From Promethearchaeota archaeon (lineage in GTDB: Archaea; Asgardarchaeota; Lokiarchaeia; Sigyniarchaeales; SOKP01), in assembly GCA_016839555.1 (NCBI GenBank), contig JAEOUA010000011.1, positions 96,001-160,000 on the forward strand: a DNA stretch of 64,000 bases, in the 5' to 3' direction. The notes beneath the pieces were generated by a model. That model saw nothing but the letters and a program-made list of their open reading frames with translations, did no database searches and was not told where the DNA came from. Numbering within the stretch: position 1 is the first letter of the stretch; each line of letters starts with the position of its first letter. Below, piece by piece: positions 2,624-30,092 of this stretch. A program made the translations under genes and the position numbers.

Positions 2624-2741
2624 TCCTTTTCACTTTTCTTTTTTTAATATCTTATTTTTTTTCAAAATTTGGTATAAAAGATACTAACGACGGAATATCG
2701 ACATAAATATTAAAAACTAGAAAATCATAATACCCTCTATA

Positions 2742-3188
2742 TTGTTAAAGCTAGATATTTTTTTCATCCCTATGGAAAAACCATCATCTTATTACGATTG
2801 GCAATTGAGTTATCAAGAAAATCCCTCCGATAGCTTAAATAGGAAAATAAAGGATATTTTAAACAAATATTCGGACAGAAAAACTCTCTATAAAACAGCT
2901 TCCATTTCGAATTCCTTATTTAATATAGAAAAACTTGATTTTGAGGGAGGGATTTTAGAATGTTCTATAAAAGCAGAAGATCAAAATAAGCTTAAAATTA
3001 TTATTGATACTAAAAAGCGGATAATCTCTCATAAGTGCAGAGAATTTAAAGCACTAAACAACTATCGTAAAAAATTCTGCTCTCATCTGCTTAAATTATG
3101 TTTTATTTTACAGGAAAAAGCACCAACCCAATTAATCTCTTTTTTAAAAGATATAACTACTTATGATTATAATTTTTTTCCCAAATAA
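2742..3188 (+). CDS. SWIM-type zinc-finger protein
   Basis: HKC-x13-CSH, a variant of CxC-xn-CxH; real start may be ATG 2772. Confidence 0.65.
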   Translation: MLKLDIFFIPMEKPSSYYDWQLSYQENPSDSLNRKIKDILNKYSDRKTLYKTASISNSLFNIEKLDFEGGILECSIKAEDQNKLKIIIDTKKRIISHKCREFKALNNYRKKFCSHLLKLCFILQEKAPTQLISFLKDITTYDYNFFPK

Positions 3189-3232
3189 TATAAAATTTGT
3201 TGAAAAAAAGAATAAAAAGAACATAGATTTTA

Positions 3233-13844: not shown

Positions 13845-15941
13845 ATGAGCAATCTAAAAAGTAGGATTAGCGAAAACCAAATTGAGAATATGTTTTTAAA
13901 GACCGAAAATCTGGAATTCCGGCAATATCAATTAGCGATCGCCAATAAATGTGTTTCTAAAAATTCACTAGTGGTCTTACCGACTGGGTTAGGAAAGACT
14001 ATTGTTGCAGTACTAATTGCCGCGAAAACATTAGAGATTTCTCCGCCTAATAGCAAAATAATAGTGATGGCACCTACTAGACCGCTCATTAATCAACATT
14101 ACGACACATTTTTAGACTTTTTGACTGTTCCAGAATCTAAATTTTGTGTTTTAACGGGGAAGAATTCACCTGAAGTTAGACCTACTGAATTTTTAGATCA
14201 TCAGATTTTGTTTTTTACTCCGCAAACCTTACGTAATGATATCGTTTCGAAAAAATATGATTTAAAAAATGTATGTCTAATGATTTTCGATGAAGCACAC
14301 CATGCTTCGGGCGATTATCCTTATAATATATTAGCCGAGCAATATATTGAACAAAATCCAGATGGGACCATTTTAGCCTTAACTGCTTCTCCGGGAGCGA
14401 GTAAAGAAAAAATCACTGAATTATGTAAAGCGCTGTATATCCCTCCCGATAATATTCATATTCGAATAAGAAAGGATTTTGATGTGAAGAATTATATAAA
14501 GGCAATGGATATTTATAAGATCGGTGTAAATTTAACCTCCCTTATGGAAGCCGTGCGAAAAATTTTGTTTACTATTTTGGAAGAATGTTTACAATATCTT
14601 TCACGTTTGGGTTTTATTTCCATCAAATCTCCACAATTACATCAAAAGATTATTCGAAAAGATTTATTAGAACTGAATCGTAAATTAGTCTCGATAATTT
14701 CTGGAGAAGGAGATAAGACGGGAGCATATAAAGGACTTTCTGTGAACGCTCAGGGCCTTATTTTATTTCATATGTTAGAATTAGTAGAGCAACAGGGATT
14801 GGATGTCTTATTAAATTACTTGGAAAAGTTAATGCAAGATGCAAGAAAAAGAAATAGCTCTAAAGCGAACCGTATATTAGCCTCAGACAGTCGGATAAGA
14901 CGAATGCATCTAGAACTATTGAAAAGAAACGACTGCGAGCCGAATATTCTGATTCATCCTAAATTTCTCATTTTAAAAAATATCTTGCTTGATGAATTAA
15001 CGAAGAATCCAGACTCTCGGATCTTAGTGTTTGTCAAATTACGAGCCTCGGTAAAAAATATTGTTAAAAGACTTAAAACTTATGAAAAGATTAGAGCGAT
15101 TCGATTTGTGGGACAAACAACCAAGTCTAAGGATGATAAGGGGCTCACACAAACCAAACAACTCGAGATTCTTAAGAAGTTTAAAAAAGGAGAATATAAC
15201 GTATTAGTGGGTACCAATGTCGCTGAAGAGGGATTGGATATAGCCGAATGCGACTTAGTAATATTTTACGATGTTGTTGCATCAGAGATCCGCTTAATCC
15301 AGCGAAAAGGAAGGACTGCCCGCCATAGAGAAGGGAAAGTGATAATACTGTATTGTCGTAATACCAATGATGAGACATATTTATTGATTGCATTAAATCG
15401 TTTGAAACAAATGCAGAGCAATTTAAAAAAAGCACCAAAAAACTCTATTCCTACTGAAAAGGATATGACGCAATCGCACTTAGGAAAGTATATCAATGAC
15501 AAATCAAAACCACAAATTAAAAAAAAAAAGTCGACTCAAACAAATTTAAATGAATCTAAGATAGCTATAAGTTCAAAATTTCCTATGAAATATGGGCTTC
15601 GAAAAGATCTTTCAAAAGAAAATATTAGTTTTAATATTCAGAAGTCAGATTTTCATCTCATTCTTTTTAATAGAATACTGATTCAGGTCCTTAAACCCAC
15701 AGAATTTTTAGAAGCAAAATTGAAGGGAATAAATTCTAAACTTAAAAATAAATTTGAATTAATTGTATTTATTTTCGACTTCACAGAGTTTCACGAGTCT
15801 TTTACGAATGAGAAGCTTCTATTTAAGCAAAAATTACTGGATTTTGGTAGTAAACAAGATTTTCAAATAATACCTATTGATATACCTGAGGAGCTTTCTT
15901 TCATCGTCAAAAATATTTATCACCATAACAATAATAAGTAA
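13845..15941 (+). CDS. hef: Hef/FANCM/Mph1-type SF2 helicase with degenerate ERCC4-like C-terminal domain
   Basis: FRQYQ, LPTGLGKT, DEAHHA, LTASPG, HPK, RFVGQ, AEEGLDI, IQRKGRTAR. Confidence 0.92.
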   Translation: MSNLKSRISENQIENMFLKTENLEFRQYQLAIANKCVSKNSLVVLPTGLGKTIVAVLIAAKTLEISPPNSKIIVMAPTRPLINQHYDTFLDFLTVPESKFCVLTGKNSPEVRPTEFLDHQILFFTPQTLRNDIVSKKYDLKNVCLMIFDEAHHASGDYPYNILAEQYIEQNPDGTILALTASPGASKEKITELCKALYIPPDNIHIRIRKDFDVKNYIKAMDIYKIGVNLTSLMEAVRKILFTILEECLQYLSRLGFISIKSPQLHQKIIRKDLLELNRKLVSIISGEGDKTGAYKGLSVNAQGLILFHMLELVEQQGLDVLLNYLEKLMQDARKRNSSKANRILASDSRIRRMHLELLKRNDCEPNILIHPKFLILKNILLDELTKNPDSRILVFVKLRASVKNIVKRLKTYEKIRAIRFVGQTTKSKDDKGLTQTKQLEILKKFKKGEYNVLVGTNVAEEGLDIAECDLVIFYDVVASEIRLIQRKGRTARHREGKVIILYCRNTNDETYLLIALNRLKQMQSNLKKAPKNSIPTEKDMTQSHLGKYINDKSKPQIKKKKSTQTNLNESKIAISSKFPMKYGLRKDLSKENISFNIQKSDFHLILFNRILIQVLKPTEFLEAKLKGINSKLKNKFELIVFIFDFTEFHESFTNEKLLFKQKLLDFGSKQDFQIIPIDIPEELSFIVKNIYHHNNNK

Positions 15942-15964
15942 GAAAATTCAGGAGGACATAATCG

Positions 15965-16498
15965 ATGATTGAAGAGCACAACAGCATTAAAAAAGACTCA
16001 AAACCTTATATTATATTTAAATGTTCCAAGTGTAAACAATATATGTATGTAAAGCCTACGCAAAAGACGAAAAAATGCTTAAGATGCGGAAGAACGCATA
16101 CAATTCAAAAGATTAAGAGGTTTAATGAGATTGAAATCGTGGAAGGAATGAGTGCGGCGGTACAACGCGTAAAAGAATTGCAAAACCAATATGCAATAGA
16201 AAAATTACAAGGAGTCCTCAATCTAAAGGGTGAAGATAGTTTTTCTATTGTTGTTCATAAAAAAAAAGTCTATTTAAATGAATTTGAAACAATTTGTATG
16301 AATAAATCTTTGGAAAAAAGATTTATTGACTTATTACAAGATCTCTCAAAAAAATATAGTCAATTTCCGAGATATATGATTGAACTGGTAGCGGAAGAAT
16401 ACAACATTGAAAAAAAAGAAATTGAATTGCTGATTCGTCAGTTTCTCGATCAAAAAAAATTAATTTCGCTCAATAACAATTACTTTACAATCAATTAA
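15965..16498 (+). CDS. DUF1922-like Zn-ribbon protein with C-terminal wHTH
   Basis: YIIFKCSKC...KKCLRCG; helical C-terminal domain. Confidence 0.7.
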   Translation: MIEEHNSIKKDSKPYIIFKCSKCKQYMYVKPTQKTKKCLRCGRTHTIQKIKRFNEIEIVEGMSAAVQRVKELQNQYAIEKLQGVLNLKGEDSFSIVVHKKKVYLNEFETICMNKSLEKRFIDLLQDLSKKYSQFPRYMIELVAEEYNIEKKEIELLIRQFLDQKKLISLNNNYFTIN

Positions 16499-16532
16499 TA
16501 AAAATTAAAAATTAATAAAAAAATATAGTAAT

Positions 16533-16706
16533 TTAAAAAATGGATCGAGCTTTTTTCTTTAGTTCTCTAAGCCTCTGCTTATATTCTGGACATTCTTTAT
16601 AGTTTGGAAACTTGCAAATTGTTTCGGACTGCGGCATGATACAACTCTGATCAAAGGGGCAATAGAGAATATGCGCCTTAAAGCCTGCCTTCCCGTGCGA
16701 ACTCAT
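16533..16706 (-). CDS. 57-aa four-Cys microprotein (not in the ORF track)
   Basis: MSSHGKAGFKAHILYCPFDQSCIMPQSETICKFPNYKECPEYKQRLRELKKKARSIF; promoter motif 22 nt upstream. Confidence 0.65.
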   Translation of the reverse strand: MSSHGKAGFKAHILYCPFDQSCIMPQSETICKFPNYKECPEYKQRLRELKKKARSIF

Positions 16707-16728
16707 AATGTTTATAATTTTATATATA

Positions 16729-16743
16729 TATTTAAATGAAAAC
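16729..16743 (-). promoter_or_regulatory. T-rich-BRE/TATA motif GTTTTCATTTAAATA
   Basis: 22 nt upstream of ATG 16706. Confidence 0.6.
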
Positions 16744-16813
16744 TAGATCCCATACTTTTAAATCTGAATGAGCCATATGAAAAAGTGATTTATTTAAAAT
16801 TATACAAGAGTTA

Positions 16814-17011
16814 TTATTCCAATTCTTTTTTAAGCTGATTTATATGTTCTTCGGTTAATGTTTGCAAGTTGGTTGAATCATTGCTTTCCTTAAAAATTGA
16901 GAAAGAAATAAAGATTTTTCTTCTTAAATAATTCAGAATTGAACTGAAATCCTTATCATGAATTTCCCTTTTTCTTTGAAATCCATTCTTTTCTTTAAGT
17001 TTACTGCTCAT
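16814..17011 (-). CDS. Small hypothetical protein
   Basis: 65-aa ORF with promoter motif 21 nt upstream. Confidence 0.5.
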   Translation of the reverse strand: MSSKLKEKNGFQRKREIHDKDFSSILNYLRRKIFISFSIFKESNDSTNLQTLTEEHINQLKKELE

Positions 17012-17032
17012 ATATCCAATATCAATCCAATG

Positions 17033-17047
17033 TATTTAAAAGAAAAA
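17033..17047 (-). promoter_or_regulatory. T-rich-BRE/TATA motif TTTTTCTTTTAAATA
   Basis: 21 nt upstream of ATG 17011. Confidence 0.55.
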
Positions 17048-17054
17048 ATAATTT

Positions 17055-17342
17055 TTATCCCGTTTCTTGCATTTTTTTGAGATATAATTTCATAAAATAG
17101 CGCTGGCTCTTGCAGTAGTCCCGTCTTTGAGCATCCGTAATACTTTTACTATTTAAGAGGATATTAAGTTGCTTAAGGATTGTAAGATATTCTTGAGTGG
17201 TTCTCTTAGGCTCTCGTTTTATTTTAATATCAATTTTTCCTTTTAAAAAAGTTTGCGATGATGAAGTTTGAGGAATGGTAAATGAGAATTTTTCTTTCTT
17301 TTTTTCATCTTTTTCAACCCCAAAGTCGGAATCTAATGACAT
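17055..17342 (-). CDS. Small basic hypothetical protein
   Basis: 95-aa ORF downstream of the Hel308-like gene. Confidence 0.55.
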   Translation of the reverse strand: MSLDSDFGVEKDEKKKEKFSFTIPQTSSSQTFLKGKIDIKIKREPKRTTQEYLTILKQLNILLNSKSITDAQRRDYCKSQRYFMKLYLKKMQETG

Positions 17343-17416
17343 TATAAAATATAAAAATTTGATAATTATATTGACTCTATTCTATATACACCAGCAACAA
17401 ATAAAAAGAAAAAATT

Positions 17417-19963
17417 TTACTTTTTAGGAAACGTTTTTATAGCACTTTCTATAATACTTTTACAGAGTTTTACACCAAGCCCCGTCTTATGATGTAAATG
17501 GTAGGGAGTATCTTTTGCTACTTGTTCGGAGGTGTGATAGCCTGCAGTAAACAAAATTCTGCCTCGTACCCGTGCCACGTGTTTTAGTCGTAGAATCAAA
17601 TCGAATAATTCTTCTTTTATCCCATAATGAATGCGAATTCGAAGCGTCTCACACATCTCGGCGATCTTTTCCATATCATTCTGGATATCTCTTCCGGAGG
17701 AACTTAGATGTTCAGCGATAATACCAATAAAGGTGATAATACGCTCTAAATTATCTTTCACCGACATTAAATCGCCCGCCATAATATTATGTCTTTCCAA
17801 AATGTCTTCTAAAGTCACTTCATCTGCCCATTCGATAATGGGCTCCAAAAATTTGCGATTCCTAACCTTCCTTTCTGAGAGAAGAATATCATAAGCTTCC
17901 TGAATGAGATCTTGGTATGATTCTATTAGCCGATTTTCCAATTTACTTCGAATAAGAACACCAGATACAGGATAGAGATAAAGTCGAATAATCAGTTTTC
18001 CAAATTGCGAGCATTTCACTGTAGAATCAGAATTTTTAAGGATCAATCCCTTTTCAAAAAGATAATTGAGGATATACTGACTTTTAATGCATTTCGGAAG
18101 AATATTATTTACGTATTTTTGCACCCGTTTATCGGGGATCTGAAGCAAATACAGCAAGAAAGCGGTAATATGATCGCAAAACTCAAATGCAAACTTATTA
18201 TCCACGAAATTATCGGAAATACCGTTTTTGAATCCGCAAGAACATCGAATCCCTTTTTCAATATTAAAATCACAATAAAAAACCCCATAGCAAGATTTAA
18301 TATAGCCCGCAATTGTTTCTCCGCTGAGCTTAGTAATTTTGATTTGATTATCTTGCTTTCTCATTTTTTTTACTTGGTTTGGATTAGAATGAAGTTTTAG
18401 AATATTTAAGGGATTTATCTCTTCAATTAATAACAGTTGTTCTATTGGAAGGGGATGCTTCATTTTATGCTCAATTATATACCAAAAATAAGTTTTTCTA
18501 AAAAATGATTTCAAAGCCTCCAAAGTAATATTTTTTTCTTCATACACCCTCAGTAATACTTGTTCTTTCAAAGTATTAATGTCATTTAATCCTGATTTTA
18601 AATCTTCATATTTTGGTAGGAGTTTATTAGCAGATACGTCCATATTAAAAAAATGATCTTCAATCCACATCTTTTCTTCTATATTATTAACAAGGATTAT
18701 ACCGTAGCCCACGGTATCTAATCCTGGACGTCCAGCTCTTCCCAACATCTGAAATACCTCATTGGATGAAAAAGGCAAAAAATAAGAAAAGCCATCGCCG
18801 TTTTCGTAAAATCCCTTAAAATTGCTAATATTATATCCTGACGTCACATAGCGTTTAAAGTCTTTTAAAATAACTACGCGAGCAGGGACATTTACCCCAG
18901 CAGCTAATGTAGTGGTACAACATATAACTTTGAGAATTCGCCTTCGATAATTATCTTCCACTAACTTTCTTTCCTTGGGTAATAATCCAGCATGATGAAA
19001 AGCAATCCCATATTCCACTAATTTGCGGAGTTCTTTATTACCTCCTCGAAGATTATCCAATTTCTCCGAGATTTCCTTACAGATAGCTGCTTCATTTTCT
19101 TCTAAGAAATGGTGGGAAATAGATTTAAGCAAAGAGGCAGTTTTTTGAGTAGCTTTTCTAGTTCTTACAAAAATCAACACTTGTCCTTTATTCTCCAATG
19201 TTTTTTTGGTATAGCGCTGTATAGTAGATTTTTTATTCTGCGACACTTCTATCTGAAAATGAAGCGGTACAGGACGTTTATCTGAAGTAATGAGAATTGT
19301 TTTGTTGCCTAAAGAATTTAGCCACGAGTTAAAGAATTTCGGGTTGTTAATGGTCGCCGAAAGACCAATGATTTGCGGGGAATTTAAGATTTCGTTTAAT
19401 CTCACAATCAGAGATTCTAATCGGGGACCTCGGGAATTTTCTCCAATAAAGTGGATCTCATCAATTATAATAGTAGCAATATCGAAAATCCATTCTTTAT
19501 CGTAAAAATTGCGAATAATAGAATCCATTTTTTCATAGGTGGTTACAATTATATCCGCTTTTTCTAATTTAGAATCATCTACATCATAATCTCCAATAGA
19601 TAATTCGATATTTACTCTAAAACGAGAATATAATGTTTTAAAGTGAAAATATTTTTCTGTGGCAAGTGCTTTATAGGGTACCAAATAGATGGATTTGCCA
19701 AACTCTTGAAAAATATTATATATCGCACAGATCTCACCTATCAATGTTTTTCCACTCCCCGAAGGTGCGCAGATGAGAAAGGATTTGCGGAAAAACAGTC
19801 CTTTTTGGATAGCTTCTTTTTGTATTTTCCGCAATTCGAAAATTTTGGATTCTAATAGAACTCGTAAGATTCGATCATCCGGAATGAGCTTAAAGATCTC
19901 TTTTTCTTCAAGATCCTCCAATTGCTTTTCTTGGTCTGAATCAGTATAATCTAAAATAGTCAT
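17417..19963 (-). CDS. Hel308/Ski2-like SF2 helicase with inserted SWIM finger
   Basis: APSGSGKT, DEIH, LSAT, HHAGL, TTTLAAGVNVPAR, QMLGRAGRPG, C-terminal HLH (RVRGRIL); insert CSC...FCDH. Confidence 0.9.
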   Translation of the reverse strand: MTILDYTDSDQEKQLEDLEEKEIFKLIPDDRILRVLLESKIFELRKIQKEAIQKGLFFRKSFLICAPSGSGKTLIGEICAIYNIFQEFGKSIYLVPYKALATEKYFHFKTLYSRFRVNIELSIGDYDVDDSKLEKADIIVTTYEKMDSIIRNFYDKEWIFDIATIIIDEIHFIGENSRGPRLESLIVRLNEILNSPQIIGLSATINNPKFFNSWLNSLGNKTILITSDKRPVPLHFQIEVSQNKKSTIQRYTKKTLENKGQVLIFVRTRKATQKTASLLKSISHHFLEENEAAICKEISEKLDNLRGGNKELRKLVEYGIAFHHAGLLPKERKLVEDNYRRRILKVICCTTTLAAGVNVPARVVILKDFKRYVTSGYNISNFKGFYENGDGFSYFLPFSSNEVFQMLGRAGRPGLDTVGYGIILVNNIEEKMWIEDHFFNMDVSANKLLPKYEDLKSGLNDINTLKEQVLLRVYEEKNITLEALKSFFRKTYFWYIIEHKMKHPLPIEQLLLIEEINPLNILKLHSNPNQVKKMRKQDNQIKITKLSGETIAGYIKSCYGVFYCDFNIEKGIRCSCGFKNGISDNFVDNKFAFEFCDHITAFLLYLLQIPDKRVQKYVNNILPKCIKSQYILNYLFEKGLILKNSDSTVKCSQFGKLIIRLYLYPVSGVLIRSKLENRLIESYQDLIQEAYDILLSERKVRNRKFLEPIIEWADEVTLEDILERHNIMAGDLMSVKDNLERIITFIGIIAEHLSSSGRDIQNDMEKIAEMCETLRIRIHYGIKEELFDLILRLKHVARVRGRILFTAGYHTSEQVAKDTPYHLHHKTGLGVKLCKSIIESAIKTFPKK

Positions 19964-20019
19964 ATAAAAAAAATTTATTAAATAGAATGAATTGAGATGA
20001 AAATCATATTTATTGAGAC

Positions 20020-20034
20020 TATTTAAACAAAAAG
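20020..20034 (-). promoter_or_regulatory. T-rich-BRE/TATA motif CTTTTTGTTTAAATA
   Basis: 56 nt upstream of the helicase start. Confidence 0.6.
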
Positions 20035-20166
20035 AGAAATATTTTTTTTATTGTTGATAATATCTCTCTCTCACGCAATACTTTTTTGAAAATTTAATGC
20101 GAAATTTCATATAAAAAAGGAATAGAATGTTTTAATTTTATCAAGTCGGTTTCATGCATTTTTTAA

Positions 20167-20181
20167 TTTTTCCTTTAAATA
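20167..20181 (+). promoter_or_regulatory. T-rich-BRE/TATA motif TTTTTCCTTTAAATA
   Basis: 25 nt upstream of ATG 20207, the head of a five-gene operon. Confidence 0.6.
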
Positions 20182-20206
20182 TAGTCAATTAATTGTAGTA
20201 TTAATT

Positions 20207-21811
20207 ATGAATAATATAATAGATAATATCTCTGATGATGCAAATAAGCAATCATGGGATATCACTTATTTGTTATCGATGGCAGAAAACGCACTCGAAA
20301 GTGGTGATATTGAACACGCTATGAGTTTAGCTCTGGGCGGAATGAAACTAGCAAAAAGCTCTAACGCTCAGTATTATCAAAAAGAATTTAGGGATATTAT
20401 TGGGAAAATTGAAGAGAATGAAGGAAGAAATAATACAAATAATACTAAAACTCCATCATATAATTCCCAAAAATCAAAAAAATTAGAATTGGATGGAGAA
20501 AAAAAAATATCTACTGAGAAGTTAAATCAAATATTGCGACTTAATAAAAATTTAGAGAATAAGGAGACACACGAAAACTTAGAAACGAAAGCTAATAAAG
20601 ATCCTTCTGAGTTCAAATCTTTTTTGAAAAATATGAATAATCCTTTAAAAATCAATTCCAAAAAAAGTCCATCAAATGTCAAAAAAACCATTCATAATAT
20701 GAAAAGCCAAATTTCTAACAAGATCAAAAATTCTTTTCTTGAACAGAAATATTTTTTGATAAATTCACTCCAAAATATTCAAGGGATTGATTTTCTCGCC
20801 CTTAAAACCATAGAAATCACAAAACATAAATTTTTAGTGCTATTAATCCCTATAAAATGGTGCCAAAATACCAGAGAGCATATCATAATCGAAGAGTATA
20901 ATGTCCGATTTGCTCATCATATAAGTGAAAATCAGTCAAAATTAAGCAAAATAATGCATCAAGATTTAATATTATTAAGGCAATCGCAAATCGAGATAAT
21001 AAGAGAAATCGCCGAGCAACAAACTTTATATGATATAATTAAACGATTTCTTAAGGAAAATTTTACAATGGAGACATTTCAGAATAATCAATGTGTCTAT
21101 TTTCATAATGGGCTGAGAGAATATAAAGTAATCACCTCGCCAATATATATTAGTACGCAAAAAATTGGTTTTTTAGAGAAGGTGTTACCTTACCCCTATC
21201 AGCGATCTTCAAATATTCATTTTGCAGAGTTAGATAAATTATCACTCCTTTTATCGTTCATAGAACAGAAATATGCGGCAATCACAGAATATTCTGAGGA
21301 AGAAAATACCATTCAACATCAATCAGAGCAATATAATAATTACTTAGACAGAATCCAAAAATGCTCGATACCATTTATCCCTGTTTCACTGTTATTATTG
21401 ATTTTAAGTATCTTTTTTGCAGGAGATTCTTTTATGATCTTATTAGGCTCAGGAATTTTTTTTCTGGTGCTCTATGGCATTCTTTTTGCCTTTTTTACAA
21501 TCATGTATCTTAAGACTATTTCTAAGATTAAGAATGAGCTGCAGAATTCCACCAACATGAATTCTCGCCCACCTTTACTGGATGAAACAGATTTAGAACT
21601 GATCGCTCAATATTTTCCTGAACAAGAAATGGAACAATTTATTTATGAATGTTTTGGAAAAGATTATGAGTTTGGTACGACTACATTTCATTATAATAAT
21701 AATTATATAACACCAAAAGAAGATCTTGAGAGACCTCAAGAGCGTACAGATAAAGCGGAGAATAACAAAAAGGAAGCCCTATCTAAATATATCCAACTTT
21801 TAGAGGACTAA
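20207..21811 (+). CDS. Membrane protein (soluble N-terminal region, TM hairpin near aa 385-435)
   Basis: Hydropathy; first gene of a tightly packed operon. Confidence 0.7.
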   Translation: MNNIIDNISDDANKQSWDITYLLSMAENALESGDIEHAMSLALGGMKLAKSSNAQYYQKEFRDIIGKIEENEGRNNTNNTKTPSYNSQKSKKLELDGEKKISTEKLNQILRLNKNLENKETHENLETKANKDPSEFKSFLKNMNNPLKINSKKSPSNVKKTIHNMKSQISNKIKNSFLEQKYFLINSLQNIQGIDFLALKTIEITKHKFLVLLIPIKWCQNTREHIIIEEYNVRFAHHISENQSKLSKIMHQDLILLRQSQIEIIREIAEQQTLYDIIKRFLKENFTMETFQNNQCVYFHNGLREYKVITSPIYISTQKIGFLEKVLPYPYQRSSNIHFAELDKLSLLLSFIEQKYAAITEYSEEENTIQHQSEQYNNYLDRIQKCSIPFIPVSLLLLILSIFFAGDSFMILLGSGIFFLVLYGILFAFFTIMYLKTISKIKNELQNSTNMNSRPPLLDETDLELIAQYFPEQEMEQFIYECFGKDYEFGTTTFHYNNNYITPKEDLERPQERTDKAENNKKEALSKYIQLLED

Positions 21812-21814
21812 TTA

Positions 21815-22558
21815 TTGGTGATTTTTGAGATGAAAACAAATTTATTGTTTAAATTGCTCTATTTTATTGGGTGCGGAATTGCGTTTTTAGGGATATTTTT
21901 TGATTTTTATTCCTATGATGTTTTTATTTTAGGTAATATTAAGCTTACTTCGTGGAGTTATAACTTATTTGAGGGATGGAATGTAAATAATACATTTGAA
22001 GCATCCTTTTTTGCTACCTTAAATCCTTTCTTTTTTATAATCATAGTGTTTTTATTATTAAAATACCCTCCTATACTCTCCATTAGTCCATTATTTCACA
22101 TTATTTTTTTGGGTGTAATTATTACCTCTGTATTATGTTTGCTATTTAAAGGATTAGAAGACTCAAAAAATTTATCGGATTTGACATTTTATGCATTTTT
22201 ACATATATTTTTATTGTTGTTAGTAGGGTTTTACACTATAGTATTTCCCATGTTTTATTTAATTCCCCATAACCTTTATTTTCCGTTTACAACCATTAGA
22301 GAGCCATTTTTAGGAATAACATATCATTATTTTTTGGGTATTGGCTATTTTTTAGAATTTATTGCATTTATATTACTTTTTCCTTATGCTGTTTTTTATT
22401 TGCAAACAGTGAGAAACTATGAAATTTCAGATGAAAGCACTCAAATAACTGAGGAATTAATAAATAAAGCAAATATAAGAATCGATATTGATAAATTAAT
22501 CGCAGAAGAGGAGTTCAAGTTTAAATTTAAAACTCATATGGAGGGTAAGCGTAAATGA
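21815..22558 (+). CDS. Polytopic membrane protein (about 5 TM)
   Basis: Hydropathy; stop overlaps the next start. Confidence 0.75.
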   Translation: MVIFEMKTNLLFKLLYFIGCGIAFLGIFFDFYSYDVFILGNIKLTSWSYNLFEGWNVNNTFEASFFATLNPFFFIIIVFLLLKYPPILSISPLFHIIFLGVIITSVLCLLFKGLEDSKNLSDLTFYAFLHIFLLLLVGFYTIVFPMFYLIPHNLYFPFTTIREPFLGITYHYFLGIGYFLEFIAFILLFPYAVFYLQTVRNYEISDESTQITEELINKANIRIDIDKLIAEEEFKFKFKTHMEGKRK

Positions 22559-23484
22559 ATGATCAAACCACATACGAAAAATTACACGCTTTAATTACCG
22601 TTTGTAAGCGAACGCAAAATTATAAAAAATTGGCACACACGGGTTATTTTTTGTTAAGCAATCAAGTAAATGAGATAGGTATACGATTAGGATTCCGTGT
22701 GAGAAAGACAGTAACCCAATCAAAATCCTCTAAATTTTTTACAAACAAAGGTTCTTACCAGAAGGAGACAATTTATGATTATTTAAATCAGATTAATAAT
22801 AGTTTCTCAACTAATCTTGATATAGAAATATTTAATGCCGATTTTCTTAAAAATTTGAAAAAGGCAGAGCTTCTATATATAAAATCAAGTGGAAAACTAA
22901 GATTATATCAAATTGCAACCCTTTTTGAGCTTTATTTTAAGTTAAAGGAACTCGAAGTCCCTAATCTTCGTAAAAAAATATCGAGCACTAAGCTACATAA
23001 TGTAGTCCCCTTTTATATGTATTCTTCGTTACTCTCTCCAACTAATTCATATAAAAATAAAGATGACAACCAGAGATTAGGGATAAAAAATTTAATATTT
23101 TTTGAGTTACAGAAAAAAGAGAATGTTCTAAAAGCTGAACTCCAACAGGATTATAATCCTAAATTATTAGAGGATATGTTGATATTGAAACAAATCAAGA
23201 AATCTTTTAAAAAATCTCCTTCCGATAAGATAAAAATAAGAAATTCATTATCAGAAAGTTTTTCTTATCAAAAATCACTGAATTCTCTTTATGGTTATTT
23301 CATTTTTGGGCTCTTTTTCGGTTTTTTTTGTTTAGGAATTAATATAATTGGGCTAATATTAATAAGTCCCTTTTTATTAGGGGCATTAGGCTTTTTTCTC
23401 TTATTGATATTAGGATCGACCATACTTTTCTTTTATATATATTGGACGAATTTCCTAAATAAAAAAGAAGTGATGCCCATTTGA
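22555..23484 (+). CDS. Membrane protein with C-terminal TM hairpin
   Basis: Hydropathy; overlaps both neighbours by 4 nt. Confidence 0.72.
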   Translation: MNDQTTYEKLHALITVCKRTQNYKKLAHTGYFLLSNQVNEIGIRLGFRVRKTVTQSKSSKFFTNKGSYQKETIYDYLNQINNSFSTNLDIEIFNADFLKNLKKAELLYIKSSGKLRLYQIATLFELYFKLKELEVPNLRKKISSTKLHNVVPFYMYSSLLSPTNSYKNKDDNQRLGIKNLIFFELQKKENVLKAELQQDYNPKLLEDMLILKQIKKSFKKSPSDKIKIRNSLSESFSYQKSLNSLYGYFIFGLFFGFFCLGINIIGLILISPFLLGALGFFLLLILGSTILFFYIYWTNFLNKKEVMPI

Positions 23485-26400
23485 AATATGAAAGAAGCAG
23501 TAATAACAATATGAATAAGGAATTCTATAGTAATGAGAGGAAGGAAGAAATATTAAAGGGAAAATCCTCGAGTTATTTAAATATATGGGAGAAAATACCT
23601 TCCTATAAAGATATTAATACCAATATCGGTATTATGAGATTTATTACTCTATTTACTCTAACAGGAATATTAATACTGTTCTCATTTTATGTGATTGGAA
23701 ATATTTTTTTTTCCATTATATTTCCCACTTCTTTAATATCTATTTTTCTGATAGGTTTTCGGGAAAATATTTTTCTTTTTTCGGGACTTGGAAAGTATAA
23801 ATACGGTCAAGTCCACCCGTTTAGAAATTTCCGATTTTGGCAAATAGATGAGCATCAAGATACTTTATATTTAACAAATACACAAGATTTAATTCACACA
23901 GGTATAAGATTATATAAAATATCAGTAATTCCCGAAAATATCCAGCCTAATTTAAATCATTTTATCAAGTCTTTATACATTTCTAAGATCCCGTTTTCCT
24001 ATCAAGTTGTTCAAACACCATTAGTTCAAAATACATCTGAAAGTATGAATATCACGATCCTCTTTGCACTTTCTTATTATGTTAAAGGGATCATAAGCAA
24101 AATAAAAATAACTAAAATTAAAGATGCGTTAGAAATATTTAGTTATACCTTTGAGAGTGCGTGTATTGCAAATCTAGCACATTATAAAATCGAAAGCCTA
24201 TCTGGAGTTGAATTGATTTATGCGTTTAGATCCTTAATAAGTTTAGTTGCAGAAGAACCAAAAAATTTCTCGGATGGAAATAGCTTCATAAGAAAAATAG
24301 ATAACAATTCAGTGCTTAAGCTTATAGTTATGTCGGTCATAATAATTTATATTTTTATATTGATTGGTCTTTCTCCAATAAAATTTTATTGGGCATTAGT
24401 TATAAATGGAGGATTCTTCTGTATATTCTTATCTCTTTTTTGGCGTGAAGCTTTATATGGTATTACTCAATTTAGTTTTCTTAAAAATAATGAATCTTAT
24501 AAAATTATTGAACCCTTCAAAGAAATCTCCTTTTATCGCTTTCGACCCTTTAGAGATATATTATTTATTCATAGTAATAATAAGGTTCTTACTGGAATTC
24601 ATTTTTTTAATGTAAAATTTGCCCTTCCACCACAGTTTTTATCAAAAGATCGTTTTATTGGTCGGATAGAAAAATTTTTTAGAGCAATTGTAAGTAAAAA
24701 GCTTCCTTTTACTTATACTCTGATAACATCACCAATATTTTGGGAAATTTTTGAAAAAGAGGGTTTAAAGCATGTGATCCCTAGTATCGCTATAGAATTG
24801 CGTCAAAGAAAAAAGGAATATGAATGGGAGCAATGGTTAGATATGAGAAGCGGAATCTGGAGGGTGATAGATCTCTATTCCATTCAAGAGCATGTCCTTA
24901 CAACGCACATTAATGAGGATTCGTTATATAAACTTTCAAAAAAATTGAATCAAAGTTCAAATGCATTTTTAAACCTATTTAAAGCCAATATTTCTAATTA
25001 CGAGATTGAACCATTAAATTCAAAATATATCTTTCCAGGGATATATGCTATCTTTTTAAAATCAAAATTTTTCAGGATGAATGGAACTCACTTAAATTAT
25101 TTGTTGTTGCAGGGAAAAACAATAATAAACCTAATGGAACTTTCTTCAGTATTTAAAAAAGGAATAGAGACGAGATTAGCGGCAGAATTTAATACCCCTC
25201 TTAATTTATCCAATTTTATTACCATCGGTAAGACACTTAATACCGAATTTTTGAAAGAAGAGGTTCCAGCGGGATTTACTCTTGATCAAGTGAAGAATCT
25301 ATTAATAACCAATGGCACATTCCGCAATCGAGAAAACTTGTTGCAGAAAATCGTGGTGGAATTGGTTAAGCATAAAACTCCCTCTATAGTTTTTGATTAT
25401 AATGGTACATTTACTAAATTCCTTCCTTATTTCGCGGGGAGCCGATTTGAAGATGATTTGTTGTTTTTTTCTTTAGGGAAAAATTTTCAATTGGATCCTT
25501 TCGATTCAGATATTCCTTATGATAAAGAAAGGGACGCCTATATAGATTATATCGTGGACATCTTGGCAATGGTCTATAAACAAAGAAAACTCATAATGGA
25601 TAGTTTAAGGGAAATCTTAAAGGAAGAGAATTTCTCGTATGCTGAATTCCTATTGGATGTGAAAAATAAAAATATTTGGGAAAAAAATTCGGGCATGGAT
25701 TCGCTTGTTTCGATGCTTAATAAAATTAAAGAAGTACCAAGCGTAATATCCAATAAAACTGAAGAAGATTCTGGAACTGAGAGATGGGCTGAGGATCAAG
25801 TTTATGCATATCAATTCGTGCAGAATGATAAGACTATCATTATAGATCTCTCCATATTTCGGGATTTAGAACCTAAAGTTTTTATGGCGTTTGTTATTAT
25901 TGCAAAGATCATATTTTATATGGCACAATTTCAAGACGAAGTAGATTCTATGTATGAAAAATTGATCATTATTCCTAATGGAGATATTATCTTTGATAAT
26001 TTTTATCTCGATACACAGATCAATTATCGTTACGGTAAAGTGATGAAACTTCTTCAACCACTTCACATTCTCAATCTTGGTGTGGTAATGACTTCCAATC
26101 AAATTCGATATCTTCATCCCAATGTGTTTAACTATTTTGCCAATATTGTTACGTTTAAAGCGACTGATAAGCGAGATATCAACGCCTTGAAAAATCAGAT
26201 GAGTCTGCAAGAATTACATGGCGTAGGATACTATAGTTCATCAAGAAATGATTCCTATCAAATCCAATTTCTTATGAATCTTAAAGAGAATGAAATTATT
26301 GTGAAGCGAGCAGACTTCCTTCAACCATTTCCTGTGATAATAGAACAGGATCAGTTAAATGAATTAATGCCTGTAAGGCAAGAAGAGATAAATGAGTATA

Positions 26401-27374
26401 TGTCGCAGCAAGGATATGATCTTTACGATAAAGAGAGCAGAATTCTTTCCAGTACGCAAAAAACCCTTTTTGAACAACACTTTAAGAATTATATTATATT
26501 TTTGGATGAAATCATTAAATTTTTTAGTATCTTGCAGACATTAGATAATGTAGGTAATTTATATAAAAGCAAAATAAAAGATGAATTACTTAAAATCATT
26601 TATCCAAAAGTACAGAAAAAGTTTGGTAAAGATAAACGACAGATAAAGCTTATCAGAGATAAATTATTCAATATTTTCTTACAACATAGTTATATCATCG
26701 AGAATCACCCCCGAAGAGCAAGTGGATCTCAATCAATCAGACCATCTTATTCGGTGGGGCCTCAGTATCAAGAATCTCTTGATGATTACTTCGAAACGGA
26801 ACAAGAAAGACCGACTAAGATTTCAGTTGAAACTCTTGAACACGAATCAGATAAAAATAGCAATTTTGAAAAAATTCTTGGAATAGAATCAAATGAAAAA
26901 GAAGAAAATTATATAGTAACAAAAAATCATAATCAAAAGGATATTAAAGAAATTTTATTAGATTATTCTTCGAAATTATTGGAAAATCTAATCGATATTT
27001 CGGTATTTATTGATGAAAAGAAATATGAAAAGGCAATTATATTGGAGCGCGCAGTTTTAACTGATTTTTTAGTTAATGTGTATTGTTCATTTTATCCCGA
27101 AGAAAAGAATGAAATGCCGGAATTATTGATAGATAAGGCTACTACATTTTTACTAAAGAATGTACCCCTTTCCATCAGTAGAAAATATGTAGACGATCTC
27201 TTAGAACGATGTAAATTACAAGAAATCAAGGAAGATAATATAGAAGAATATAAACTTGAAATAAACCAGCTTTCAGATTTACTTTTCGAATTCTTCACTA
27301 CTTTCCATAATGATATAAGAAAATTAATAAAGAATAATGAAAAAAATAAAAGGAATTATGAAATGTTATGGTGA
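23481..27374 (+). CDS. Membrane-anchored HerA/VirB4/FtsK-superfamily protein with degenerate ATPase motifs
   Basis: ITIG...NLLITNGTFRNRE...IVFDYNGTF...IIIDLS...GVVMTSNQIRYLHPNV...IVTFKATDKRD follows the HerA motif order. Confidence 0.75.
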   Translation: MKYERSSNNNMNKEFYSNERKEEILKGKSSSYLNIWEKIPSYKDINTNIGIMRFITLFTLTGILILFSFYVIGNIFFSIIFPTSLISIFLIGFRENIFLFSGLGKYKYGQVHPFRNFRFWQIDEHQDTLYLTNTQDLIHTGIRLYKISVIPENIQPNLNHFIKSLYISKIPFSYQVVQTPLVQNTSESMNITILFALSYYVKGIISKIKITKIKDALEIFSYTFESACIANLAHYKIESLSGVELIYAFRSLISLVAEEPKNFSDGNSFIRKIDNNSVLKLIVMSVIIIYIFILIGLSPIKFYWALVINGGFFCIFLSLFWREALYGITQFSFLKNNESYKIIEPFKEISFYRFRPFRDILFIHSNNKVLTGIHFFNVKFALPPQFLSKDRFIGRIEKFFRAIVSKKLPFTYTLITSPIFWEIFEKEGLKHVIPSIAIELRQRKKEYEWEQWLDMRSGIWRVIDLYSIQEHVLTTHINEDSLYKLSKKLNQSSNAFLNLFKANISNYEIEPLNSKYIFPGIYAIFLKSKFFRMNGTHLNYLLLQGKTIINLMELSSVFKKGIETRLAAEFNTPLNLSNFITIGKTLNTEFLKEEVPAGFTLDQVKNLLITNGTFRNRENLLQKIVVELVKHKTPSIVFDYNGTFTKFLPYFAGSRFEDDLLFFSLGKNFQLDPFDSDIPYDKERDAYIDYIVDILAMVYKQRKLIMDSLREILKEENFSYAEFLLDVKNKNIWEKNSGMDSLVSMLNKIKEVPSVISNKTEEDSGTERWAEDQVYAYQFVQNDKTIIIDLSIFRDLEPKVFMAFVIIAKIIFYMAQFQDEVDSMYEKLIIIPNGDIIFDNFYLDTQINYRYGKVMKLLQPLHILNLGVVMTSNQIRYLHPNVFNYFANIVTFKATDKRDINALKNQMSLQELHGVGYYSSSRNDSYQIQFLMNLKENEIIVKRADFLQPFPVIIEQDQLNELMPVRQEEINEYMSQQGYDLYDKESRILSSTQKTLFEQHFKNYIIFLDEIIKFFSILQTLDNVGNLYKSKIKDELLKIIYPKVQKKFGKDKRQIKLIRDKLFNIFLQHSYIIENHPRRASGSQSIRPSYSVGPQYQESLDDYFETEQERPTKISVETLEHESDKNSNFEKILGIESNEKEENYIVTKNHNQKDIKEILLDYSSKLLENLIDISVFIDEKKYEKAIILERAVLTDFLVNVYCSFYPEEKNEMPELLIDKATTFLLKNVPLSISRKYVDDLLERCKLQEIKEDNIEEYKLEINQLSDLLFEFFTTFHNDIRKLIKNNEKNKRNYEMLW

Positions 27375-27380
27375 TTTATC

Positions 27381-27773
27381 ATGGAATCAGAAAATAACGC
27401 AATATTAAGTTTATTTTTCGATTTATTAGAAAGAACCATTTTAAATGTGGACCAATTGAAAAAATTAAAACAAATTAGTAAAGAGTTTGGAATCCAAGAA
27501 GATAGAATTTCAGAATTTATGGAATATTTTATAACTTATTTACTAGATGTCTTAGAGAAACAAAAAAAAAGATTACCAAAATTTATTTATAGGTTATTTA
27601 TCTCTCAATCCTCAAATTATTACTCAAATCAAAATCAAAATATTAATGAAAGAAATTCAGAAGAAAAAAATTCAAAAATTAAAGAACTTGAGGGTTCATT
27701 AATACAGAGAGATGAACTTTTAGAAAAAATAGCACAGCGCCTTGACATCATCCGCAAAAAAATAGCAGACTAA
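27381..27773 (+). CDS. Small coiled-coil protein, last gene of the operon
   Basis: GGTGA SD 7 nt upstream; helical/coiled-coil sequence. Confidence 0.7.
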   Translation: MESENNAILSLFFDLLERTILNVDQLKKLKQISKEFGIQEDRISEFMEYFITYLLDVLEKQKKRLPKFIYRLFISQSSNYYSNQNQNINERNSEEKNSKIKELEGSLIQRDELLEKIAQRLDIIRKKIAD

Positions 27774-27841
27774 GAAGAAAATAAGCAGAAAATAGAATAC
27801 TTTACTTACAACCACTTCAAAAGGGAGAAGTAAAGAAGATT

Positions 27842-27863
27842 TCTACTTTATATATAAAGTAGA
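27842..27863. repeat. Perfect 22-bp palindrome TCTACTTTATATATAAAGTAGA
   Basis: Self-complementary; read directly from the sequence. Confidence 0.85.
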
Positions 27864-28295
27864 TCACCAAAAGACAAAAATCCAGGGATTTAAGTAAAGT
27901 TTCTATTCCCTAGGGTCTTTATTTATGACCCCCATCTTACTTTATTTTAAGGTCATATTTAAATCTAAGGGTTTTAGATTCTTAATATAAAAATTAAAAA
28001 TAGATATCTAATGCGAAAAAGGTTATATGAACAAGAAAATTAAAAAACATTTCAATTTATTATCTCTTGAATGAGAATTTCAAATTGTCTCTTTTTATTT
28101 GAAAAATCACTATAATTCTTTTCAATTTGAACTATTTAACAATTTTTGGACTATAAAAATATTTTTAACTATGATTATCTTATATTGTTAAAATAGATCG
28201 ATAATTGTTAAATTTTTAAATTTATTTCATTATATTAATTATAAGATATTAATAAAAAATATAGAGATTTTTTGATTTCAAAAGGGTGATTTAAG

Positions 28296-28943
28296 ATAGG
28301 ACTTAAAGATAAGCTCTTCCCGAAAAAAAACCGTGATAAGGACGTTACTATAACGAAAGCCAAAACACATATCAGGAAATTAGCTCTTTCCAATAAAAAT
28401 TATAGCCAGCGAGCTGAAATTAGTAGAAAGAATGCGAAAATTGCATTAAAGCGCGGTGAAAAAGATAGAGCGAAGAATTATCTTATTCAATATAAAAATT
28501 ATCAGAGAAAAATGGATAGAGCCAATAAAATCAGAACAAGAATAGAGAGACAAATTCAAGCAATCGAGGAGGGACAGTTAGTCGCAGATACCGGTAATTT
28601 AATGGGTGGGATGAGGGATCAACTAAAAGGAATTGCTACAAAGGCATCTCCTACTGAGGCTGCTGAGATAGCTGAAGATTCTGAATTGTATGTAACTGAA
28701 ATAGAGGAGGCTGCAGATATTTTAGCTGGTGATCCAGAGATTGATTTGGCAATTTCAATAGACGATGAATTGGAGAAATTAGAATCAGAAATGTTGTTAG
28801 AGCAAGGTGGAGAAATGCCTGAAGTGCCTGCCGATGATTTGCAATACATTTCTGACGTGCCTCTTGAAGAATTACCTCAAGAGGATTCCAAAGACAAACT
28901 TGAAGAAGAAATAAAAAAGCTTCGCGAAGAATTGGAAAAATAA
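28296..28943 (+). CDS. Snf7-family ESCRT-III protein (Vps20/32/60-like), 215 aa, probable ATA start
   Basis: Frame of ORF 28512 extends 72 codons upstream: (M)GLKDKLFPKK...AKIALKRGEKDRAKNYL; acidic C-terminus IDDELEKLE...MPEVP...EEEIKKLREEL; GGTGA SD at 28285-28289. Confidence 0.85.
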   Translation: MGLKDKLFPKKNRDKDVTITKAKTHIRKLALSNKNYSQRAEISRKNAKIALKRGEKDRAKNYLIQYKNYQRKMDRANKIRTRIERQIQAIEEGQLVADTGNLMGGMRDQLKGIATKASPTEAAEIAEDSELYVTEIEEAADILAGDPEIDLAISIDDELEKLESEMLLEQGGEMPEVPADDLQYISDVPLEELPQEDSKDKLEEEIKKLREELEK

Positions 28944-28951
28944 TTTAATCT

Positions 28952-29983
28952 TCATTTTTTCACTGAATTTATTGCGGATACCATATTTTTTAATTTTCTG
29001 AATGCGATTTGATAACCAAATTCTTCTTTTTCAAAAAGCTGTCTAATTGAACCAAATCCACAATCCGGTTTTACAAACAAGTTTTTTTGACCGTATAAAT
29101 CAATCGCCTTCTTGATGCTATTTATAATTTCAGGGACCTTTTCAACATAATCCTCAATTTTACCGTTTTGTATTGGTTGTAATTTAGTTTTCACCGCACC
29201 GAATGCCAAAAATTTATCTTCTTGCATAAAATGCTCTTTTTGGAAAATATCATAGTTTTTAGGATTTGTTTGGAATTCGTGATCTAACACATTTACTTCT
29301 GTTTGTAATAATATATCTCGTAATTTCGGGCTTATTTGACCACATACATGAACTGAAGATAATTCTTTAATACCCGAAATCGCTTTATTTAAGGTTTTGA
29401 TAATAAAATCTTCAGAATGAAACATGACGCGTTTTCCAATCAGAAGACTCAAGATAGGTTCATCCATAGAGATAAGATTTATTCCCATATCACTATAAGC
29501 TTTCCCGATCTGCTTCATGATTTCTGCAAATTTATCTACAATCCAATCAACCATAATTGCTTTAGGTTCATTAAAAATAATGGGTTTTATCCCTTTAGCA
29601 AGGGTTTCTTTTAAAATAATTTCACTTGCTAGGGTAAATGGTCCTGTTAAACAAGCTTTTAATCCTTTAATTTTTTTTTCAAGATTTGGATGGGTATTCA
29701 TGAAATTCACTAGAAATTTTCCATATTGTAAAGCTACAGGTCGAGTAGGAATTTCAAAATCATTAAATAGATAAAAATTATTATTCTCTTGAACAAGCTC
29801 GGGAATTTCCTTACTTAACGGCGATAAAAATTGCGATATCATATCAATGAGTTGACCATAGCAGACATAATCAATCCCTATATTGATTTGGTCATTAATT
29901 GTTCGTGCGAGATTTTCGTCCGTATTTTCAAGCGGAAACGAGCCAACTACAGTAGAATAGAGCCCATTATCTTTTAAATCCAT
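28952..29983 (-). CDS. Cobalamin-independent methionine synthase catalytic-domain (core MetE-like) protein
   Basis: VVGSFP, LTGPFTLA, DEP, HVC, E, PDCG zinc ligands. Confidence 0.85.
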   Translation of the reverse strand: MDLKDNGLYSTVVGSFPLENTDENLARTINDQINIGIDYVCYGQLIDMISQFLSPLSKEIPELVQENNNFYLFNDFEIPTRPVALQYGKFLVNFMNTHPNLEKKIKGLKACLTGPFTLASEIILKETLAKGIKPIIFNEPKAIMVDWIVDKFAEIMKQIGKAYSDMGINLISMDEPILSLLIGKRVMFHSEDFIIKTLNKAISGIKELSSVHVCGQISPKLRDILLQTEVNVLDHEFQTNPKNYDIFQKEHFMQEDKFLAFGAVKTKLQPIQNGKIEDYVEKVPEIINSIKKAIDLYGQKNLFVKPDCGFGSIRQLFEKEEFGYQIAFRKLKNMVSAINSVKK

Positions 29984-30092
29984 ATAATGTATAAGATTAA
30001 AAAAAATTTAAATTTATAAGGTTTAATAAAATTGTAATAAAATAAAAATATTTTACCCTTTATAAGAAATTAAAAAGATAGAAAGTATTAGA

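Follow-up and report, generated by a model that had tools for sequence, protein, structure and literature searches.

This work describes a VirB4-like pseudo-ATPase gene encoded in a 64,000-nucleotide stretch of the genome of a Promethearchaeota archaeon (GenBank assembly GCA_016839555.1, contig JAEOUA010000011.1, positions 96,001 to 160,000; this whole stretch is referred to here as the window). We are highly confident that the gene product is a functional protein of the VirB4 type that no longer works as a motor. An earlier reading of the nucleotide sequence (the original prediction) had named it a giant membrane-anchored HerA/VirB4-like pseudo-ATPase with a duplicated transmembrane-hairpin module, and had cast it as a structural or regulatory subunit of a DNA-translocation pore. 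Of the ATPases that serve type IV secretion and conjugation, VirB4 alone is conserved universally, and a VirB4 that has persisted over hundreds of millions of years with no ATP site would separate the structural role of this protein from its motor role. In a literature search, no description of a VirB4- or HerA-like pseudo-ATPase in Asgard archaea came to light.

Domain architecture and replaced catalytic motifs

The N-terminal half of the protein establishes its type. Structures were predicted with AlphaFold2 as two models from 34-row alignments (mean predicted local distance difference test score of 77 for each, mostly >90 in the P-loop core). In the N-terminal model, amino acids (aa) 112 to 525 superpose on residues 15 to 373 of TrwK/VirB4 in five entries (VIA-align Z 21 to 22.1; root mean square deviation, rmsd, of 3.3 to 3.9 Å over 285 to 295 residues), and the next unrelated fold reaches Z 6.8. 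Foldseek hits below E 1e-4 were exclusively TrwK/VirB4 of R388 (E 3e-7), and an independent shape search of the ESM Atlas retrieved only clusters of VirB4, TraC, IcmB, and "TraG P-loop" proteins. Residues 15 to 400 of TrwK constitute the VirB4 N-terminal domain (PMC9259494). Because the model superposes on this domain alone, the protein is assigned to the VirB4 type, a step beyond HerA-like, and the "duplicated transmembrane-hairpin module" is, as far as the predicted structure goes, the VirB4 N-terminal domain. On the question of a HAS-barrel, the fold matched by the N-terminal part is that of the VirB4 N-terminal domain, and aa 526 to 560 were modelled at low confidence.

The duplication itself was correctly recognized in the original prediction. 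The two soluble subdomains, aa 104 to 262 and 332 to 525, align to each other by hhalign with a probability of 98.5% (E 1.8e-15, 153 columns); the two N-terminal halves also find each other by BLASTP (E 1e-5), and the order of strands and helices is repeated twice in the AlphaFold2 model. Both hydrophobic hairpins (Table 1) are present in the protein and in the family average, and the second falls inside the region aligned with the N-terminal domain of TrwK, which is soluble. In R388, a separate protein, VirB3, supplies two transmembrane helices and wraps the VirB4 N-terminal domain (PMC9259494). By analogy, transmembrane hairpin 1 would occupy the VirB3 position relative to this domain.

The HerA scaffold proposed for the central domain is invisible to plain sequence search and was recovered by profile-profile and structural comparison. 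Searches of the whole protein against Pfam and NCBIfam (E up to 1) and against the Protein Data Bank (PDB) with phmmer gave no match, and whole-length and central-domain profiles run against the PDB returned just non-significant HerA (E = 1) and VPS4 MIT (E 0.6) entries. PF01935 does not match the pseudo-ATPase, and a scan of its own genome with this model gives eight other places, not this gene; PF03135 (VirB4) matches neither the protein nor any other place in the genome, which is 92% complete. With hhalign, by contrast to plain search, the domain aligns to HerA-like (DUF87) proteins of the same genome with a probability of 89.6% (E 1.9e-6, 330 columns). The AlphaFold2 model has a RecA-like fold, for which the best Foldseek match is Sulfolobus HerA (PDB entry 4d2i; E 1e-10), followed by SIR2-HerA, VirB4 (4ag5), and DndH-C. 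VIA-align of aa ∼560 to 980 gives Z 25.3 for DndH-C, 24.2 for HerA 4d2i, and 21.6 for TrwB. The C-terminal domain of VirB4 (4ag5) superposes with Z 23.3 over 329 residues (rmsd 4.4 Å), with a Foldseek template modeling score (TM-score) by target of 0.64.

Within this scaffold, the catalytic positions are replaced as the original prediction had read them. For Walker A, hhalign to the HerA-like proteins of the same genome places ITNGTFRNRE on GxTGxGKS to within one residue. N611, G612, and R617 of this segment are invariant in 34 of 34 orthologs, and E/D618 lies at or beside the position of the Ser/Thr Mg ligand. For Walker B, the AlphaFold2 strand LIII (aa 828 to 831) runs into PNGD, in place of the expected hhhDEAH. 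The register here is ambiguous, since hhalign favors DIIF-D, 7 residues later, which supplies F-D and not D-E; in either register hhhhDE is absent, as is GK[ST] at Walker A. The "RK" of the GRKFG arginine-finger motif aligns by hhalign to H862-I863, the HI of the original prediction, and this position is variable within the family. The HerA motifs hhhhDxxGEY, hhhDLS, and QRP...LRLTNxxD are discernible in degenerate form.

Beyond the ATPase-like domain, at the position equivalent to aa 990 to 1110, Pfam finds a winged-helix domain in distant relatives. A winged helix was tried as an identity for this segment and rejected, as hhalign against the winged helix-turn-helix tail of a distant relative detected no homology (probability 1.8%); a PDB profile search with the segment gave just PABP-C (E 0.11), and the ESM Atlas gave no match. 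For the C-terminal helical domain, which is poorly conserved, the best PDB profile matches are five VPS4 MIT-domain sequences at sub-threshold E values of 0.018 to 1.1, the top two being VPS4A MIT (E 0.018 and 0.032). Pfam MIT matches 0 of 34 family members, and an MIT identity for the C terminus may be taken as a weak lead.

Table 1. Features of the pseudo-ATPase gene, its operon, and the adjacent helicase (window coordinates)
Feature	Coordinates	Strand	Basis or remarks
VirB4-like pseudo-ATPase gene	23481..27374	+	1297 aa; alternative start ATG 23511
Transmembrane hairpin 1 (aa 47-101)	23619..23783	+	Hydropathy of protein and family average; AlphaFold2 helices 47-72 and 75-92
VirB4 N-terminal domain, subdomain 1 (aa 104-262)	23790..24266	+	VIA-align, hhalign; separate gene in split relatives
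Transmembrane hairpin 2 (aa 272-329)	24294..24467	+	Hydropathy, AlphaFold2; between the two subdomains
VirB4 N-terminal domain, subdomain 2 (aa 332-525)	24474..25055	+	VIA-align, hhalign, ESM Atlas shape search
HerA/FtsK/VirB4-superfamily P-loop-type domain, catalytically degenerate (aa ∼560-985)	25158..26435	+	AlphaFold2, Foldseek, VIA-align, hhalign
Degenerate Walker A, ITNGTFRNRE (aa 609-618)	25305..25334	+	N611, G612, R617 invariant
Degenerate Walker B, LIIIPNGD (aa 828-835)	25962..25985	+	P832 invariant; 835 acidic, nearly invariant
Most conserved domain after the ATPase-like domain (aa 990-1110)	26448..26810	+	Basic hairpin motif HPRRASGSxSxR; dN/dS 0.018
C-terminal helical domain (aa 1151-1297)	26931..27371	+	AlphaFold2 helices; follows a variable acidic linker; weak MIT-like similarity
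Operon gene 1	20207..21811	+	534 aa; soluble part, then transmembrane hairpin
Operon gene 2	21815..22558	+	247 aa; polytopic membrane protein; no family match
Operon gene 3	22555..23484	+	309 aa; soluble domain and C-terminal transmembrane hairpin; no family match
Operon gene 5	27381..27773	+	130 aa; position conserved, sequence poorly conserved
Hel308-like superfamily 2 (SF2) helicase with Cys/His (SWIM-like) insert	17417..19963	-	Divergent; Pfam DEAD, Helicase_C, Helicase_dom4_arc

Family distribution, selection, and genomic neighborhood

A search of 5.8 billion proteins retrieved 98 homologs, nearly all of 1250 to 1340 aa and 30 to 78% identical to the query. Every homolog with a source name is from Asgard archaea (Promethearchaeota/Lokiarchaeota, with single members from Hermod-, Hel-, and Thorarchaeota), and the database annotations read only "hypothetical" or "membrane protein of unknown function." When 1.84 billion representative proteins were searched with a profile, 200 hits were obtained, in which the named distant relatives are again all Asgard (Promethearchaeota, Lokiarchaeum ossiferum, and Hel-, Sigyn-, and Baldrarchaeia). 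Among 301 sampled genomes of the phylum, strong matches fall almost only in the GTDB family to which the organism itself belongs (52 of 68 genomes), and weak matches occur in several other GTDB families. Taken from these searches, the family seems to be restricted to Asgard archaea. A divergent relative of the long form, NEF87_004794 (P0184; 1264 aa, profile E 1.7e-38), is encoded by Lokiarchaeum ossiferum, which is in culture. With this relative and the repair-helicase neighbor described below, the family offers a testable entry to Asgard DNA exchange, uptake, or tethering at the membrane. One homolog, P0099 (1036 aa), carries PF11977, which we take to be an NYN-type RNase family; this rare fusion might point to cleavage of nucleic acid in certain lineages.

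The original prediction had noted that intact Walker motifs in close orthologs would point to lineage-specific decay. Neither GK[ST] nor hhhhDE occurs in any of the 34 aligned orthologs, and a pattern scan found no Walker A in the domain of the 73 weakest profile hits among the matches listed. In 32 of those 73 that were aligned, GG[TS]xxxR-like loops are seen, and many keep an hhhhD[ED]xD-like Walker B. Because these orthologs and distant relatives all lack Walker A, the motif loss is not a case of lineage-specific decay. Judged by these alignments, the degenerate motifs are ancestral, the pocket having been remodelled once, early, before diversification across Asgard archaea, and conserved since.

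The ratio of nonsynonymous to synonymous substitution rates (dN/dS), which the original prediction had proposed to examine, indicates strong purifying selection. Against the 78%-identical ortholog it is 0.11 overall, 0.04 in the ATPase-like domain, and 0.018 in aa 990 to 1110; with dS at 1 to 2, near saturation, these ratios are rough and their direction is clear. Because a HerA/VirB4 fold has lost its catalytic motifs yet is kept by selection, the protein is best understood as a structural or regulatory subunit and not as a motor, and this part of the original prediction stands.

The pseudo-ATPase gene stands fourth in a tight row of five genes on the same strand, the junctions of which are 3- to 6-nucleotide gaps or overlaps. 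Orthologs of genes 1 to 3 occur in the same order, at 26 to 33% identity, in a Lokiarchaeon with a VirB4-like protein that is 36% identical, and the same layout is found in four further loci, one of which is the locus of the 78%-identical ortholog. A small open reading frame (ORF) occupies the gene 5 position in loci L001, L014, L015, and L019. The divergent Hel308-like helicase is present at all 5 other long-form loci, with DEAD, Helicase_C, and, in most, archaeal domain 4. Its Cys/His insert sits after the helicase core, and Pfam SWIM is matched just weakly, in the helicase of locus L018 (E 0.056).

Locus L018, whose identical proteins in the databases are labelled Helarchaeota, holds a split form of the system. 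Here, a transmembrane hairpin and subdomain 1 are encoded by a gene of their own (299 aa; hhalign probability 98%, E 1.9e-13), which precedes a 547-aa ATPase-like protein ending in a Pfam winged-helix domain. The divergent helicase is kept at this locus (1632-3821, minus strand), with 36% identity to that of the window (E 9e-125) and the Cys/His insert aligned. Since the split-form locus keeps the same divergent helicase, the link between helicase and pseudo-VirB4 is older than the gene fusion.

Genes 1 to 3 of the window gave no family match in Pfam or NCBIfam, and profiles of genes 2 and 3 run against the PDB and an ESM Atlas feature search with gene 3 returned nothing usable. In gene 1 orthologs, an N-terminal HHH_5 domain is found at three of four loci scanned (E 4e-9 to 6e-14), and helix-hairpin-helix (HhH) families are matched by four of five distant database homologs of gene 1. 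A complex prediction for the N-terminal 525 aa with gene 3 scored 0.00, which counts neither for nor against binding.

A second pseudo-VirB4 is encoded in the same genome on contig 7 (L012, 8564-12577, minus strand). It is 1337 aa long, 50% identical, and also degenerate, and operon genes 1 to 3 are absent from its locus. Two genes downstream (L012, 5489-7408, minus strand) lies the gene for a HerA-like protein of 639 aa whose Walker A (GMPKTGKT) and Walker B (LDEAH) are both intact, and at least five more DUF87 genes are found elsewhere in the genome. The original prediction had envisaged a heteromer with an active ATPase encoded elsewhere. Such a partnership is possible, the lone hint being the HerA-like gene near the second copy.

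Comparison with known systems and proposed role

Among systems already described, bacterial VirB4 with VirB3 (PMC9259494) and the Ced and Ted importers of archaea (PMC9905601) come closest. VirB4/TrwK of R388 (PDB entries 7o42, 7o43, 8rtb, 8rtd, and 4ag5), VirB3-VirB4 fusions included, has the same two-part architecture: the N-terminal domain of the Asgard protein lies on TrwK 15 to 373 (Z 22) and its P-loop domain on the VirB4 C-terminal domain (Z 23.3). As in VirB3-VirB4, a transmembrane hairpin stands ahead of the N-terminal domain, and the gene is grouped with genes for small membrane proteins. Unlike VirB4, the Asgard protein lacks Walker A, Walker B, and the GRKFG arginine, has no Pfam VirB4 match, and carries a second transmembrane hairpin inside the N-terminal domain as well as ∼300 extra C-terminal residues (the basic-hairpin domain, the acidic linker, and the helical domain). 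Its gene is also chromosomal, syntenic, and off mobile elements, and VirB2, VirB6, VirB8, VirB11, and VirD4 were not identified with it.

CedB and TedB resemble the Asgard protein as archaeal, chromosomally domesticated VirB4/HerA-like proteins encoded with small and polytopic membrane proteins, and Ted loci also carry HerA-like helicase genes (PMC9905601). CedB and TedB are, however, described as active ATPases that power DNA import, and their systems include a pilin like VirB2 and a channel like VirB6, which were not identified here; Ced and Ted were compared by their published description (PMC9905601). With HerA (HerA-NurA, SIR2-HerA, and DUF4297-HerA) and DndH-C, the Asgard protein shares the RecA-like core and HerA-type helical insertions (Z 24 to 25), but it differs from them in its membrane anchor, its lost catalytic motifs, and an N-terminal part that is the VirB4 N-terminal domain. 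Degenerate domains of the FtsK/HerA superfamily kept as non-catalytic or regulatory translocase modules are known from EccC, the motor of the type VII secretion system. The EccC structure 4nh0 superposes on the central domain with a Z of only 13.6. EccC retains at least one active domain per chain, whereas the sole P-loop-type domain of the Asgard protein is degenerate.

On balance, we favor, at somewhat better than an even chance, a reading in which the protein serves, without catalysis, as the assembly hub of a complex that handles DNA at the membrane. The Walker A Gly/Lys/Ser, the Walker B Asp-Glu, and the GRKFG arginine had been lost by the time the family spread and diverged among Asgard archaea, and strong purifying selection has since kept the fold and the altered pocket residues. 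Self-anchored in the membrane by its two transmembrane hairpins, the hub would retain the structural role of VirB4, namely that of an inner-face platform on which small membrane partners dock. VirB4 docks VirB3 and the tails of VirB8 (PMC9259494). The hub may bring together the products of the three co-transcribed membrane-protein genes as a complex at the cytoplasmic side of the membrane, and this complex would most likely hold or hand over DNA there, with motor work done by the Hel308-like helicase or by a separate HerA-like ATPase.

DNA handling is proposed because the operon is fixed beside the SWIM-containing Hel308-like helicase and because HhH domains occur in gene 1 orthologs; we put this component of the reading slightly below an even chance. 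Helicase synteny and HhH domains are the only links to DNA, and neither a pilin nor a channel homolog was found; a place in the DNA-translocation pore of the original prediction is thus conjectural.

Several observations weigh against a DNA-handling hub. At the old active site, the invariant R617 and the nearly invariant acidic residue at 835 persist, so ligand binding there is conceivable. Of the 68 genomes of the GTDB family, 16 have no match, some of them being 97 to 99% complete, which makes the system dispensable. The window's own gene 1 and its close relatives are without the HhH domain, and no counterparts of VirB3, VirB6, VirB2, VirB8, or CedA were found among the partners in Pfam, the PDB, or the ESM Atlas. 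The window's helicase resembles the main Hel308 ortholog of the genome, and its adjacency could therefore reflect inherited gene order and not functional coupling. Lastly, the soluble parts are predicted to be cytoplasmic, because N-terminal hydrophobic signals are absent and the hairpins return the chain to the same side; by this topology all large domains are cytoplasmic, with nothing pilus-like or resembling an outward-facing receptor.

A bolder version of the hub reading, which we regard as improbable though worth stating, is a chromosomal Asgard machine derived from a type IV secretion system (T4SS) or Ced, in which a VirB4 motor has turned into a passive hub and the SWIM-Hel308 helicase or a HerA-like ATPase supplies the power. 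If true, the closest prokaryotic relatives of eukaryotes would possess an apparatus for DNA exchange or import of a class not seen before.

The alternative that survives best, while still unlikely, is that the protein is a switch that still binds nucleotide, or hydrolyses it slowly, through a non-canonical P-loop, and so a regulated motor or gate in place of a passive hub. R617 would then replace the Walker lysine, and the acidic residue at 835 (or D839) the Walker B acid. The pocket residues N611, G612, R617, P832, and D/E835 are invariant or nearly so, the dN/dS of 0.04 in the ATPase-like domain is the lowest among the large domains, and an hhhhD[ED]xD-like Walker B is kept by many distant relatives, all of which speaks for a switch. 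Against this, the phosphate-loop glycines and the Ser/Thr Mg ligand are both gone, with E/D618 at or beside the position of the latter, and the position of the GRKFG arginine is variable. Lysine-to-arginine Walker A mutants of P-loop NTPases are normally hydrolysis-dead.

Slightly less probable again is a role unconnected with DNA, either as a membrane-organizing or remodelling platform (for example, one linked to ESCRT) or as a T4SS-derived platform for protein or pilin export. The first form would fit the sub-threshold VPS4 MIT matches of the C-terminal domain (E 0.018 to 0.03) and the Snf7/ESCRT-III gene that lies ∼0.9 kb downstream both in the window and at the locus of the 78%-identical ortholog, but Pfam MIT is found in none of the 34 members and the Snf7 neighbor is missing at four more distant loci. 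The second form would draw on bacterial VirB4, which also serves pilus biogenesis (PMC9259494). The want of HhH in the window's gene 1 suits either form, whereas the features that are conserved, the helicase neighbor and the HhH domains, argue for DNA.

We think it distinctly improbable that the protein is the scaffold of an antiviral or anti-plasmid conflict system, like SIR2-HerA, DUF4297-HerA, or DndFGH, that senses nucleic acid at the membrane. DndH-C is among the top structural matches, as are the HerA subunits of SIR2 and DUF4297 defence complexes, homolog P0099 carries PF11977, and one ortholog adjoins a CRISPR-Cas locus. However, the HerA of known defence complexes is an active ATPase, Pfam gives no effector domain in the operon, and PADLOC gave, among the operon proteins, no match for P0001 to P0004 and a trivial 14.5-bit match for P0005. 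The synteny across deep divergence and the mostly single-copy presence in 52 of 68 family genomes are likewise unlike patchy mobile defence islands.

Finally, a decaying relic of an integrated conjugative element with eroding ATPase motifs, suggested by VirB4 being a signature gene of such elements and by the lost catalytic motifs, is ruled out for practical purposes by selection and synteny: the frame of ∼1250 to 1340 aa is intact in roughly 90 homologs, the dN/dS is low (0.11 for the whole gene, 0.04 for the ATPase-like domain), the sequences that took the place of the catalytic motifs are invariant in turn, and the chromosomal context is conserved with no relaxase, integrase, or VirD4 gene in the neighborhood.

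Gene boundaries and further features of the window

The ORF is open and uninterrupted over 1297 codons, as the original prediction had stated, from a TTG start that overlaps the upstream stop by 4 nucleotides. The database copy of the protein starts instead at the in-frame ATG 23511 and is 1287 aa long, and the start is therefore uncertain by 10 codons. G+C content is ∼30% across the window, and the Pfam models that match its helicase and DUF1922 genes are named for archaea. A search of positions 16000 to 30000 against Rfam found no RNA family, and a tRNA search of the whole window found none.

Upstream of the Hel308-like gene lies a second SF2 helicase, of the RNA_helicase_helical type, at positions 13845 to 16498 of the window and likewise in loci L013 (1-1597) and L019 (1-1054); both the window and L013 have a DUF1922 protein after it. 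As this second helicase is shared across loci, the conserved neighborhood is larger than the operon.

The Snf7/ESCRT-III protein downstream of the operon (28296-28943, plus strand) matches PF03357 with E 2.2e-9, above the curated cutoff. The match needs the frame to be read from upstream of its first ATG at 28512, and there is no in-frame ATG, GTG, or TTG between the stop at 28287 and 28512. The same Snf7 gene, with a weak match, is present at the locus of the 78%-identical ortholog.

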